NCBI RefSeq assembly: GCF_056712565.1
Contig: NZ_CM160072.1
Strand: one strand, 5' to 3'
Length of the DNA stretch: 64,000 nucleotides
The notes below the pieces were generated by a model. That model was not told the origin of the DNA. It saw only the letters and a list, made by a program, of their open reading frames with translations, and ran no database searches. Within the stretch, counting starts at the first letter, position 1, and each line of letters begins with the position of its first letter. This document shows, piece by piece, positions 12,477 to 17,774 of this stretch. The position numbers were made by a program, and so were the translations under genes.

Positions 12477-15400
12477 ATGCCAAAACGTACAGATATAAAA
12501 AGTATCCTGATTCTGGGTGCGGGCCCGATTGTTATCGGTCAGGCGTGTGAGTTTGACTACTCTGGCGCGCAAGCGTGTAAAGCCCTGCGTGAAGAGGGTT
12601 ACCGCGTCATTCTCGTGAACTCCAACCCGGCGACTATCATGACCGACCCGGAAATGGCTGATGCAACCTACATCGAGCCGATTCACTGGGAAGTGGTACG
12701 CAAGATTATTGAAAAAGAGCGCCCGGACGCGGTGCTGCCAACCATGGGGGGGCAGACGGCGCTGAACTGTGCGCTGGAGCTTGAGCGTCAGGGCGTGCTG
12801 GAAGAGTTCGGCGTCACCATGATTGGTGCCACTGCCGATGCGATTGATAAAGCCGAAGACCGCCGCCGTTTCGACGTAGCGATGAAGAAAATCGGTCTGG
12901 AAACTGCGCGTTCCGGTATCGCTCATTCAATGGAAGAAGCGCTGGCGGTTGCCGCTGAAGTTGGCTTCCCGTGCATTATTCGCCCATCCTTTACCATGGG
13001 CGGTAGCGGTGGCGGTATCGCTTATAACCGTGAAGAATTTGAAGAAATTTGCGCCCGCGGTCTGGATCTTTCTCCGACTAAAGAGCTGCTGATTGATGAG
13101 TCGCTGATCGGCTGGAAAGAGTACGAGATGGAAGTGGTGCGTGATAAAAACGACAACTGCATCATCGTCTGCTCTATCGAAAACTTTGATGCGATGGGCA
13201 TCCACACCGGTGACTCCATCACTGTCGCGCCAGCCCAAACGCTGACCGATAAAGAATATCAAATCATGCGTAACGCCTCGATGGCGGTACTGCGTGAAAT
13301 CGGCGTTGAAACCGGTGGTTCCAACGTCCAGTTTGCGGTGAACCCGAAAAACGGTCGCCTGATTGTTATCGAAATGAACCCACGCGTGTCTCGCTCCTCT
13401 GCGCTGGCGTCGAAAGCCACTGGTTTCCCGATTGCCAAAGTGGCGGCGAAACTGGCGGTGGGTTACACCCTCGACGAGCTGATGAACGACATCACCGGTG
13501 GGCGTACTCCGGCCTCCTTCGAGCCGTCCATCGACTATGTGGTTACTAAAATTCCTCGCTTCAACTTCGAGAAATTCGCCGGTGCTAACGACCGTCTGAC
13601 CACTCAGATGAAATCGGTTGGCGAAGTGATGGCGATTGGTCGCACGCAGCAGGAATCCCTACAAAAAGCGCTGCGCGGCCTGGAAGTGGGCGCAACTGGC
13701 TTCGATCCGAAAGTGAGTCTCGACGACCCGGAAGCGCTGACTAAAATCCGCCGCGAACTGAAAGATGCTGGCGCAGAGCGTATCTGGTATATCGCTGATG
13801 CCTTCCGCGCGGGCCTGTCTGTAGACGGTGTATTTAATTTGACCAACATTGACCGCTGGTTCCTGGTACAGATTGAAGAGCTGGTGCGTCTGGAAGAGAA
13901 AGTCGCAGAAGTGGGCATCACTGGCCTGCACGCTGAATTCCTGCGCCAGCTGAAACGCAAAGGCTTTGCCGATGCGCGTCTGGCAAAACTCGCGGGCGTG
14001 CGTGAAGCAGAAATCCGCAAGCTGCGCGACCAGTATGACCTGCACCCGGTTTACAAGCGCGTGGATACTTGTGCGGCAGAGTTCGCCACCGACACCGCTT
14101 ACATGTACTCCACTTATGAAGAAGAGTGCGAAGCGAATCCGTCCACCGATCGTGAAAAAATCATGGTGCTCGGCGGCGGCCCGAACCGTATCGGTCAGGG
14201 TATCGAATTCGACTACTGCTGTGTACACGCCTCGCTGGCGCTGCGCGAAGACGGTTATGAAACCATTATGGTTAACTGTAACCCGGAAACCGTCTCCACC
14301 GACTACGACACCTCTGACCGTCTCTACTTCGAGCCGGTAACTCTGGAAGACGTGCTGGAAATTGTGCGTATTGAGAAGCCGAAAGGCGTTATCGTCCAGT
14401 ACGGCGGTCAGACCCCGCTGAAACTGGCGCGCGCGCTGGAAGCTGCTGGCGTACCGGTTATCGGTACCAGCCCGGATGCCATCGACCGTGCGGAAGACCG
14501 TGAACGCTTCCAGCATGCGGTTGAGCGTCTGAAACTGAAACAACCGGCGAACGCCACCGTTACCACCATCGAAATGGCGGTTGAGAAAGCGAAAGAGATT
14601 GGCTACCCGCTGGTGGTGCGTCCGTCTTACGTTCTCGGCGGTCGGGCGATGGAAATCGTCTATGACGAAGCTGACCTGCGTCGCTACTTCCAGACAGCGG
14701 TCAGCGTATCTAACGATGCGCCAGTGTTGCTGGACCACTTCCTTGATGACGCAGTAGAAGTTGACGTGGATGCCATCTGCGACGGCGAAATGGTGCTGAT
14801 TGGCGGCATCATGGAGCATATTGAGCAGGCGGGTGTGCACTCCGGTGACTCCGCATGTTCACTGCCAGCTTACACCTTAAGTCAGGAAATTCAGGATGTG
14901 ATGCGCCAGCAGGTGCAGAAACTGGCCTTCGAACTGCAGGTGCGCGGCCTGATGAACGTGCAGTTTGCGGTGAAAAACAACGAAGTCTACCTGATTGAAG
15001 TTAACCCGCGTGCGGCGCGTACCGTTCCGTTCGTCTCCAAAGCCACCGGCGTACCGCTGGCAAAAGTGGCGGCGCGTGTGATGGCTGGCAAATCGCTGGC
15101 TGAGCAGGGCGTAACCAAAGAAGTTATCCCGCCGTACTACTCGGTGAAAGAAGTGGTGCTGCCGTTCAATAAATTCCCGGGCGTTGACCCGCTGTTAGGG
15201 CCAGAAATGCGCTCTACCGGGGAAGTAATGGGCGTGGGCCGCACCTTCGCTGAAGCGTTTGCCAAAGCGCAGCTGGGCAGCAACTCCACCATGAAGAAAC
15301 ACGGTCGTGCGCTGCTTTCCGTGCGCGAAGGCGATAAAGAACGCGTGGTGGACCTGGCGGCAAAACTGCTGAAACAGGGCTTCGAGCTGGATGCGACTCA

Positions 15401-15698
15401 CGGCACGGCGATTGTGCTGGGCGAAGCGGGTATCAATCCGCGTCTGGTGAACAAGGTGCATGAAGGCCGTCCGCACATTCAGGACCGTATTAAGAATGGC
15501 GAATATACCTACATCATCAACACCACCTCAGGTCGTCGTGCGATTGAAGACTCCCGCGTGATCCGTCGCAGTGCGCTGCAATATAAAGTGCATTACGACA
15601 CCACCCTGAACGGCGGCTTTGCCACCGCGATGGCGCTGAATGCCGATGCGACCGAAAAAGTAATTTCGGTGCAGGAAATGCACGCGCAGATCAAATAA
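12477..15698 (+). CDS. carB: Carbamoyl-phosphate synthase large subunit
   Basis: 1073 aa ORF with duplicated ATP-grasp halves. Confidence 0.97.
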
Positions 15699-15750
15699 TA
15701 GCGTGTCATGGCGGATATTTTTCATCCGCTAATTTGATCGAATAACTAAT

Positions 15751-15778
15751 ACGGTTCTCTGATGAGGACCGTTTTTTT
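15751..15778 (+). terminator. Probable rho-independent terminator after carB
   Basis: acggt...accgt stem followed by T7 run. Confidence 0.4.
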
Positions 15779-15779
15779 G

Positions 15780-16490
15780 TGCACAGAAAACCCCCAGCTA
15801 GGCTGGGGGTTCCGGAAAGCTTTCAGCTTTGAGCCAGTTATTAAAACCCCTTTTGATTTGTTAAAACACCTTGCGGTCTGGCAACTGCAAGTGTCAAACA
15901 AGAAATCAAAAGGGGGTCCCAATGGGGAACGAAAAGAGCTTAGCGCACACCCGATGGAACTGTAAATATCACATAGTATTTGCGCCAAAATACCGAAGAC
16001 AGGTGTTCTACAGAGAGAAGCGTAGAGCAATAGGCTGTATTTTGAGAAAGCTGTGTGAGTGGAAAAGTGTACGGATTCTGGAAGCTGAATGCTGTGCAGA
16101 TCATATCCATATGCTTGTGGAGATCCCGCCCAAAATGAGCGTATCAGGCTTTATGGGATATCTGAAAGGGAAAAGCAGTCTGATGCCTTACGAGCAGTTT
16201 GGTGATTTGAAATTCAAATACAGGAACAGGGAGTTCTGGTGCAGAGGGTATTACGTCGATACGGTGGGTAAGAACACGGCGAAGATACAGGATTACATAA
16301 AGCACCAGCTTGAAGAGGATAAAATGGGAGAGCAGTTATCGATTCCCTATCCGGGCAGCCCGTTTACGGGCCGTAAGTAACGAAGTTGGATGCAAATGTC
16401 AGATCGTGTGCGCCTGTTAGGGCGCGGCTGGTAAGAGAGCCTTATAGGCGCATTTGAAAAACCTCCGGCTATGCCGGAGGATATTTATTT
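15780..16490 (+). mobile_element. IS200-type insertion sequence (IS200/IS605 family), about 0.71 kb; boundaries approximate
   Basis: Contains a 152-aa HuH Y1 transposase gene; subterminal imperfect palindromes cccccagctaggctggggg (15791-15809) and cctccggctatgccggagg (16462-16480); carB-caiF spacer is about 710 bp longer than in K-12 (from memory). Confidence 0.8.
15922..16380 (+). CDS. tnpA: IS200 transposase TnpA (Y1 HuH family)
   Basis: ORF 15871..16380 trimmed to ATG 15922 (MGNEKSLAHTRWNCKYHIVFAPKYRRQ...), 152 aa; SD ggggg upstream. Confidence 0.9.
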   Translation: MGNEKSLAHTRWNCKYHIVFAPKYRRQVFYREKRRAIGCILRKLCEWKSVRILEAECCADHIHMLVEIPPKMSVSGFMGYLKGKSSLMPYEQFGDLKFKYRNREFWCRGYYVDTVGKNTAKIQDYIKHQLEEDKMGEQLSIPYPGSPFTGRK

Positions 16491-16669
16491 GCCCATTAAG
16501 TAAATCTTTTGGGGAATCGATATTTTTGATGACATAAGCAGGATTTAGCTCACACTTATCGACGGTGAAGTTGCATACTATCGATATATCCACAATTTTA
16601 ATATGGCCTTGTTTAATTGCTGCAAAACGAGTCATAGCCAGTCTTTTAATTTGTGAAACTGGAGTTCGT

Positions 16670-17065
16670 ATGTGTGAAGGATGTGTTGAAAAACCACTCT
16701 ATTTGTTAATCGCCGAATGGATGATGGCTGAAAACCGGTGGGTGATAGCAAGAGAGATCTCTATTCATTTCGATATTGAACACAGCAAGGCGGTTAATAC
16801 CCTGACTTATATTCTGTCGGAAGTCACAGAAATAAGCTGCGAAGTTAAGATGATCCCTAATAAGCTGGAAGGGCGGGGATGCCAGTGCCAGCGACTGGTA
16901 AAAGTGGTTGATATCGATGAGCAAATTTACGCGCGCCTGCGCAATAACAGCCGGGATAAATTAGTCGGCGTAAGAAAGACGCCGCGTATTCCTGCCGTTC
17001 CGCTCACGGAACTTAACCGCGAGCAGAAGTGGCAGATGATGTTGTCAAAGAGTATGCGTCGTTAA
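16670..17065 (+). CDS. caiF: Transcriptional activator of carnitine metabolism CaiF
   Basis: ORF 16565..17065 trimmed to ATG 16670 (MCEGCVEKPLYLLIAEWMMAENRWVIAREIS...), 131 aa. Confidence 0.9.
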   Translation: MCEGCVEKPLYLLIAEWMMAENRWVIAREISIHFDIEHSKAVNTLTYILSEVTEISCEVKMIPNKLEGRGCQCQRLVKVVDIDEQIYARLRNNSRDKLVGVRKTPRIPAVPLTELNREQKWQMMLSKSMRR

Positions 17066-17094
17066 TGTCATTTCGTTGATACCGTGCGACCTGG

Positions 17095-17180
17095 TCGCTG
17101 GATGCGATGCTGGCGCATCTTATCCGGCCTACGGTTGCTTTACAGCCAGGTCGGATAAGGCGTTTATGCCGCATCCGACG
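17095..17180. repeat. REP element between caiF and caiE
   Basis: gatgcgatgctggcgcatcttatccggcctac ... ggataaggcgtttatgccgcatccg palindromic REP units. Confidence 0.55.
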
Positions 17181-17183
17181 ATG

Positions 17184-17774
17184 TTACCGTTTCGGCGTCA
17201 CATCCGTCGTCCCCTGCAAACGGGGGCGATTTTCCTCCATTTGCCTCAGTGGCTGCGTTTCATGTAACGCTGCATGACAGCGCCCGACAAGATCCTGATA
17301 CTCTTTGGTATTCAACCGTTTCCAGTGTAACTCGTCGTCACTCACGCTGCGTACAGCGCGGGCTGGCGTACCCATCAACAACTGGCGTTTCTCGCCGCGA
17401 AAGCCCGCTTTGACAAAGCTCATAGCGGCAACAATGCTCTCTTCGCCAATGACCGCGCCATCCATAATCACGCTGTTCATCCCGACCAGTGCATCGCGAC
17501 CAATCACACAACCATGCAGGATCGCTCCGTGCCCGATATGACCGTTTTCCCCAACGATGGTGTCAGTGTCGCAGTAGCCATGCATAATGCAGCCATCCTG
17601 AATATTGGCTCCCGCTTGCACGATCAACCGCCCGTAGTCACCACGCAGTGAGGCGAGTGGGCCGATGTAGACACCGGCTCCCACAATCACATCGCCAATC
17701 AATACTGCACTGGGATGGACAAACGCCGTCGGGTGAACAACCGGAATTAACCCCTCAAAGGCGTAATAGCTCAC
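17184..17774 (-). CDS. caiE: Carnitine operon protein CaiE (hexapeptide-repeat transferase family)
   Basis: ORF 17184..17795; start set to GTG giving 196 aa ([20 protein letters not shown]...). Confidence 0.85.

Follow-up and report, generated by a model that had tools for sequence, protein, structure and literature searches.

Between carB (12477–15698, + strand) and caiF (16670–17065, + strand), the window (the whole 64,000-nucleotide stretch of DNA that was analyzed) carries a complete, ordinary, and already annotated IS200C of 711 bp at positions 15779–16489 (+ strand). The element directly follows the T-run that closes the carB intrinsic terminator (15751–15778, + strand; hairpin ACGGTTCTC-TGAT-GAGGACCGT followed by 7 T's; found by terminator scan and DNA fold), which is also its target. 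Downstream lie the core caiF promoter (16539–16588, + strand) and caiF itself, an intact gene of 131 amino acids (Pfam CaiF_GrlA; RefSeq annotation of the identical FY26 sequence). A first-pass annotation, made from the sequence alone, had put an IS200-like unit between the carB terminator and caiF; terminator scan, fold, and empty-site alignment all place it there.

Boundaries were set by alignment to the empty site of Escherichia coli strain HM52, relative to which the inserted DNA measures 711 bp (15779–16489). The empty site reads ...GAGGACCG-T8-GCCC (where GAGGACCG ends in GGACCG), and the occupied site reads ...GAGGACCG-T7, then the element (GTGCACAG...ATATTTATT), then T-GCCC; there is no target-site duplication, and the carB terminator still has the hairpin and 7 of the 8 T's. 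The T-run alone would permit both ends to slide 1 to 2 nt to the left. The ends were fixed at 15779 and 16489 because other E. coli copies have the same ones: the sequence common to this copy and 8 other independent E. coli copies runs from GTGCACAG to ...TATTTATT. Junctions between tandem copies of IS1541 in Yersinia pestis, where ...ATATTTATT is followed directly by GTGCCCAG, give the same ends. Comparison with other copies, which the first-pass annotation had proposed as the way to define the element, thus settled its extent and showed the insertion to be free of a target duplication; the element that it had described at 15780–16490 stands, with its position corrected by one base. The distance that it gave to caiF is exact, with 180 nt separating the IS from the caiF ATG (16670), and the carB-caiF spacer, whose length it had expected to differ in strains lacking IS200, is 260 bp without IS200C and 971 bp with it. 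Terminal inverted repeats are absent, the two ends being GTGCACAG... and ...ATTTATT.

The element carries tnpA and no tnpB. The 152-amino-acid tnpA (15922–16380, + strand) is the sole family-matching open reading frame in the 711 bp, and its product, a Y1 HUH transposase, is identical to WP_000526115.1, labeled by RefSeq as “IS200/IS605-like element IS200C family transposase.” TnpA matched Pfam PF01797 (Y1_Tnp; E value, 1.9e-36; 125 bits; cutoff, 23) and the NCBIfam equivalog NF033573 (transpos_IS200; E value, 8e-42; 142 bits; cutoff, 55), and the solved IS200/IS605 transposases 2EC2 and 2F5G (both from Sulfolobus), 2A6M (IS608), and 2XM3 (ISDra2) aligned with it at E values of 6e-22 to 1e-15. 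In the alignment with 2EC2, the HUH motif (H61-I62-H63) falls on the HIH of that solved homologue and Y110 on the tyrosine of its RSYF motif. An HuH transposase of 152 residues had been read from the sequence at first sight, and both its length and its family hold; similarity to IS200/IS605 TnpA, on which that reading hung, was found in the Y1_Tnp, transpos_IS200, and PDB alignments alike. The copy is a full-length, structurally intact member of the tnpA-only group of the IS200/IS605 family. A longer frame of 169 amino acids, opening at a TTG at 15871, was dropped in favor of the ATG at 15922, which follows a Shine-Dalgarno (SD) sequence at a distance of 6 to 10 nt and is the start given by RefSeq. 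A second IS200 copy was sought across the 64-kb window and none was found, so that the window holds one.

Folded structures mark both ends of the element and the start of its gene. The left-end hairpin (15789–15811, + strand), with a stem of 10 bp and the loop TAG, was found by folding and in the Rfam alignment, and is presumed to be the hairpin bound by TnpA. The right end (16462–16489, + strand; scan, fold, and copy comparison) consists of the hairpin CCTCCGGC-TAT-GCCGGAGG at 16462–16480 and the tail ATATTTATT, which is T rich with an interrupted, probably weak T-run; it finishes in TTATT and so resembles the TTNTT found at target sites. These are the subterminal palindromes that had been noticed at the first reading. 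Between them, a 69-nt stem-loop in the 5′ untranslated region (UTR) (15847–15915, + strand; fold and covariation) buries the SD of tnpA, pairing GGGG at 15912–15915 with CCCC at 15847–15850, and the ribosome-binding site is indeed embedded in a stem-loop, as proposed. The fold had a z-score of −5.5, with 0 of 200 shuffled sequences folding as well, and among 16 diverse copies from across genera, double (compensatory) changes were seen in 13 of the 31 predicted pairs, mostly in the SD stem. Directly 5′ of each hairpin lies an A-tract: at the left end GAAAA, with its A's at 15787–15790 (+ strand), just before the GC core of the hairpin and kept in the left ends of the 16 diverse copies, and at the right end GAAAAA at 16456–16461. 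By analogy, this tract may be a putative “guide” for pairing with the T-rich sequence at which cleavage and insertion take place; in IS608, bases at the guide position pair with the cleavage and target sites and can be reprogrammed (PMC5934647).

Rfam family RF01405 (STnc490, the IS200 5′ region), presumably built on Salmonella sequences, matched 15789–15912 (+ strand) end to end with 146 bits (gathering score, 56). Two further Rfam matches, one to Ysr202 (32 bits; gathering score, 315) and a second one to STnc490 (20 bits; E value, 0.21), were set aside as partial matches that cover the right-end hairpin only. In Salmonella, the antisense small RNA (sRNA) art200 (STnc490) was defined experimentally opposite the tnpA 5′ UTR (PMC4513863). 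From that description, the corresponding minus-strand feature would span 15841–15930 (− strand), and a −35-like TTTACA at 15966–15961 (− strand) lies where the description would put the art200 promoter. The RF01405 match is on the tnpA-sense strand and starts from the left terminator hairpin, upstream of the reported tnpA transcription start site (TSS), and art200 runs antisense to it. It seems that the model captures the left end of IS200 and not art200 itself; being on the sense strand, the match therefore marks that end and is not evidence of art200 expression.

The layout is close to that of the prototype IS200 of Salmonella enterica (707 bp in PMC4513863), which likewise carries a single tnpA of 152 amino acids. 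The left terminator hairpin occupies nt 11 to 33 of the element here and nt 12 to 34 in Salmonella IS200, and the SD stem-loop nt 69 to 137 here and nt 69 to 138 there, with the ATG at nt 144. Relative to the Salmonella element, the present copy is the E. coli variant, named IS200C in RefSeq, with a few substitutions against the Rfam consensus, and the lengths of 711 and 707 bp probably differ through the definition of the ends within the T-run. The copy number is apparently one per genome in this lineage, in contrast to the 5 to 12 copies reported for Salmonella Typhimurium (PMC5435999).

IS1541 of Y. pestis and Y. pseudotuberculosis has an identical 19-nt left hairpin core, a near-identical 5′ UTR and right end (GGAGGATATTTATT), and the same insertion rule, after a hairpin and then TTNTT; it differs in its first 8 nt (GTGCCCAG, against GTGCACAG here) and in its high copy number, with at least 27 loci from one genome, head-to-tail tandems included. 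More distant are IS608 of Helicobacter pylori and ISDra2 of Deinococcus, whose TnpA proteins are homologous Y1 HUH transposases (2A6M, E value of 1e-17; 2XM3, E value of 1.5e-15). They share with IS200C subterminal hairpins in place of inverted repeats, the lack of a target duplication, insertion on the 3′ side of a short specific sequence to which the left end is directly joined, and, probably in the case of IS200C, an active strand on the lagging-strand template (PMC5027513). IS608 and ISDra2 also carry tnpB, which IS200C lacks; their targets are TTAC and TTGAT, respectively, whereas that of IS200C is TTNTT, and IS200C is predicted, by analogy with Salmonella IS200, to possess in addition a left-end terminator, an SD stem-loop, and an antisense RNA. 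We know of no association of IS608 or ISDra2 with terminator hairpins.

The distribution of the insertion was surveyed by megablast against 5,426 complete E. coli genomes, most of which have the empty site, and carriers were counted with a 200-nt probe across the left junction. The junction was present in exactly 128 of the genomes, in every case on the chromosome and with at least 99% identity, leaving about 98% of E. coli genomes without this copy. Carriers include UTI89, NU14, IHE3034, S88, UM146, APEC O1, APEC O18, IMT5155, the type strain ATCC 11775, and many avian-pathogenic (APEC) isolates of O1/O2/O18:K1; we take them to be strains of the ST95 complex. The insertion marks one clonal K1 lineage of extraintestinal-pathogenic E. 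coli (ExPEC) and APEC, is already known through its RefSeq annotation, and is useful mainly as a marker of that lineage. Among the 60 best-matching records, most had one match place for a 1.3-kb probe, so the carB-caiF copy is apparently the sole IS200 copy in most of those records. The CFT073 chromosome record had 21 match places, and the CFT073 copies encode the identical protein, WP_000526115.1.

Insertion behind a terminator is the rule for this element in E. coli. All nine independent copies lie directly 3′ of a hairpin that is rich in GC and ends in a T-rich tail; for eight of them it is the intrinsic terminator belonging to an upstream gene of the same orientation (carB, cof, glnS, rnb, plaP, ydgA, potE, and sseA); at the ninth, the hairpin is terminator-like and the upstream gene encodes a hypothetical protein. 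Species-representative genomes were then scanned with the 19-nt left-end hairpin, and the matches listed comprised 107 distinct sites, a sample to which a few genomes (Y. pestis, Vibrio ruber, Mailhella, and one Bacillota metagenome-assembled genome [MAG]) contributed most. IS200-type left ends among the matches listed came from Yersinia, Vibrio, Brenneria, Edwardsiella, Budvicia, and Dickeya and, further, from Oxalobacter, Mailhella/Desulfovibrio, Peptococcaceae, other Bacillota, Elusimicrobia, and Saccharibacteria. A strict terminator test (stem of at least 5 bp with at least 3 GC pairs, loop of 3 to 8 nt, and T-rich tail ending at most 3 nt before the element) was passed by 86 (80%) of the 107 distinct upstream flanks among the matches listed, by 0.97% of random positions in the same DNA, and by 8 to 9% of all TT[T/A/G]TT positions. 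Most of the 21 failing sites have an imperfect hairpin by eye. The flank consensus of the 107 sites among the matches listed was TTNTT, with T in 87 to 97% of them at −5, −4, −2, and −1.

The terminator enrichment itself is solid. We do not claim the association as new, because a preprint reports terminator-like sequences upstream of IS200/IS605 elements on a large scale (10.1101/2025.07.22.666184), and older IS1541 papers may already have noted it. As for its origin, we put forward tentatively, and with rather less than even confidence, that TnpA of the IS200 group reads a structure beyond the pentanucleotide itself, taking a terminator hairpin with TTNTT behind it, when this lies on the lagging-strand template, as a mimic of the element's own right end, which would make terminators a “safe harbor” across phyla. 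The preference could also in part reflect the survival of harmless insertions and not targeting. A terminator rule that holds across phyla would be of somewhat broader interest for IS biology, in that it would offer a reason for both the harmlessness and the persistence of IS200. The carB-caiF copy offers a clean example of an IS200 that has settled behind a terminator with neither neighbor damaged; for the carB-caiF locus itself, a known and annotated IS200C copy means little.

In Y. pestis NCTC5923, IS1541 forms head-to-tail tandems in which one left end starts exactly after the right end of another copy (...GGAGGATATTTATT followed by GTGCCCAG), an arrangement consistent with a right end serving as a terminator-like target. 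Three other matches of the 19-nt hairpin stood apart. The Ruminococcus MAG RUG14215 has the same 19 nt, CCCCCAGCTAGGCTGGGGG, with shared sequence before it, ATGCTTATT after it, and then unrelated flanks; this looks like the right end of a different multicopy element. Solo remnants of an IS200 left end were seen in Dickeya undicola, as an extended perfect palindrome (GTCTATAGAAAACCCCCAGCTAGGCTGGGGGTTTTCTATAGAC) without an IS body, and in Pluralibacter gergoviae, where the sequence diverges after about nt 78.

Taken together, by far the best explanation, which we hold with high confidence, is that an intact IS200C inserted behind the carB terminator in a clonal ancestor and persists as a near-silent passenger with close to no effect on its neighbors. 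The element would have entered the ancestor of one clonal K1-type ExPEC/APEC group by single-strand “peel-and-paste” transposition, its active top strand being joined into the lagging-strand template directly 3′ of the T-tract of the carB terminator. The top strand probably lies on the lagging-strand template here, because the + strand of the window has a positive cumulative GC skew and the IS200C site is at 35.7 kb on the + strand of UTI89, from which two facts we infer the direction of replication; the lagging-strand template is where the active strand is expected in the IS200/IS605 family (PMC5027513). At the target, the A-tract guide beside the end hairpins would pair with the T-rich cleavage site, and the terminator, once in single-stranded DNA, would resemble the element's own right end. 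That pairing and that mimicry are likely why sites with a GC hairpin and TTNTT are almost always used.

Once in place, the element would be kept quiet at several levels. Incoming transcription would be halted first at the carB terminator and next at the left-end hairpin, which in Salmonella IS200 works as a terminator in both directions and ends about 85% of the transcripts that reach it from outside (PMC5435999, PMC4513863). The tnpA promoter of Salmonella IS200 is intrinsically weak, its SD stem-loop cuts translation about 20-fold, and art200 together with Hfq represses tnpA further (PMC4513863, PMC5435999). If the E. coli copy behaves alike, translation of the transposase would be blocked by the SD stem-loop and, in addition, by art200 and Hfq, and with the right-end hairpin closing the unit, IS200C would be a nearly silent passenger.

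What the insertion means for caiF depends on where the promoter lies. Eichler et al. in 1996 reportedly placed the caiF TSS 82 nt ahead of the start codon, described an extended −10 and, at −41.5, a CRP motif, and counted NarL also among the regulators of caiF. By this reported distance, we take the TSS to be 16588. A CRP/FNR-type sequence, CAGGA-N6-TCACA, is then centered at 16546.5, or −41.5, and an extended −10, TGcATACTA, lies at 16572–16580. The fit of the TCACA half-site at −41.5, together with the FNR site given for caiF at −41.5 by Myers et al. in Table 1 (PMC3688515), serves as a cross-check on this TSS. On this placement, the IS end lies at about −99, with all three promoter features (the TSS, the extended −10, and the −41.5 site) 50 to 99 bp downstream of it; DNA upstream of about −99 is pushed 711 bp farther from caiF. 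Promoter-like sites, outward ones included, were sought in 15600–16750 and none was found, and with the TSS so placed, IS200C would appear neither to disrupt the caiF promoter nor to supply a new one. The insertion is most likely close to neutral for caiF, since it spares both the carB terminator and the core caiF promoter. The suggestion of the first-pass annotation that read-through, or termination within the element, could alter caiF expression gained no support from these results, although a modest regulatory effect on caiF could exist.

A stronger version, in which the insertion rewires caiF control and changes carnitine metabolism, either by cutting the gene off from upstream DNA (H-NS nucleation, a distal FNR or CRP contact, or UP-like AT-rich DNA) or by read-through from tnpA, we judge unlikely. 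The element does end only about 99 bp upstream of the TSS so placed, it is co-oriented with caiF, the point on which the first-pass annotation had raised read-through, and the T-run of its right-end tail is probably weak. In addition, caiF is controlled by FNR, CRP, and H-NS and is repressed by the last of these (PMC2131755), and the center of the K-12 FNR chromatin immunoprecipitation (ChIP) peak for caiF (34,059; PMC3688515) maps to about 15719 in the window, upstream of the insertion. Yet the caiF open reading frame and the promoter features named above (−41.5 site, extended −10, and TSS) are all intact downstream of IS200C, and the scan of 15600–16750 gave no promoter-like site. The weak tnpA promoter and the strong left-end terminator described for Salmonella IS200 also speak against it. 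Upstream of the insertion point, inspection by eye for the FNR consensus TTGAT-N4-ATCAA gave poor matches only. Literature searches on IS200 with caiF, caiF with UTI89, and IS200 with ST95 returned nothing relevant; neither a link between IS200 and caiF in E. coli nor a publication on the insertion was found.

That the element is a dead relic, no longer able to transpose, is also improbable. In favor of such a state are its standing as the sole match in most of the 60 best-matching records and the notorious immobility of IS200 (PMC4513863). Against it, TnpA is identical to the protein encoded by the CFT073 copies, in a record with 21 match places, the HUH motif and the conserved tyrosine are present, and the two ends agree base for base with those of other copies; “active” and “inactive” IS200 copies are, moreover, reportedly near-identical in sequence (PMC4513863).

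Very unlikely, finally, is a domesticated sRNA locus, in which the host would use the 5′tnpA sRNA, art200, or both as trans-acting regulators as in Salmonella, where 5′tnpA regulates invF and other virulence regulons (PMC5435999, PMC12594629): the 5′ region does match its Rfam family at 146 bits, and most of the 60 best-matching records have the element in a single unchanged copy, but the 128 genomes are a young clone whose flanks are also about 100% identical, so that conservation carries no selection signal, the transposase gene and both ends are equally intact, some 98% of E. coli genomes do without this copy, and the Salmonella target (invF, in SPI-1) has no stated counterpart here.

Three features near the element or in another genome were recorded in passing. 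A second hairpin, GGCGGAT-ATTTTTC-ATCCGC, lies at 15709–15729, about 10 nt past the carB stop codon. Its position is that of the K-12 FNR peak center for caiF (34,059), and the IS separates it from caiF. Between caiF and caiE (window positions 17080–17190) are REP/BIME-like palindromic repeats (...GCGATGCTGGCGCATCTTATCCGGCCTAC... and GTCGGATAAGGCGTTTATGCCGCATCCGAC). In E. coli FY26 (NZ_CP101741.1), a 381-bp tandem duplication takes in the end of the spacer between carB and the IS, the left end of the element, and some 65 codons from the start of tnpA. RefSeq annotates the duplicated part as a partial pseudogene of tnpA that precedes the complete gene; the duplication may be either a real rearrangement or an assembly artifact.
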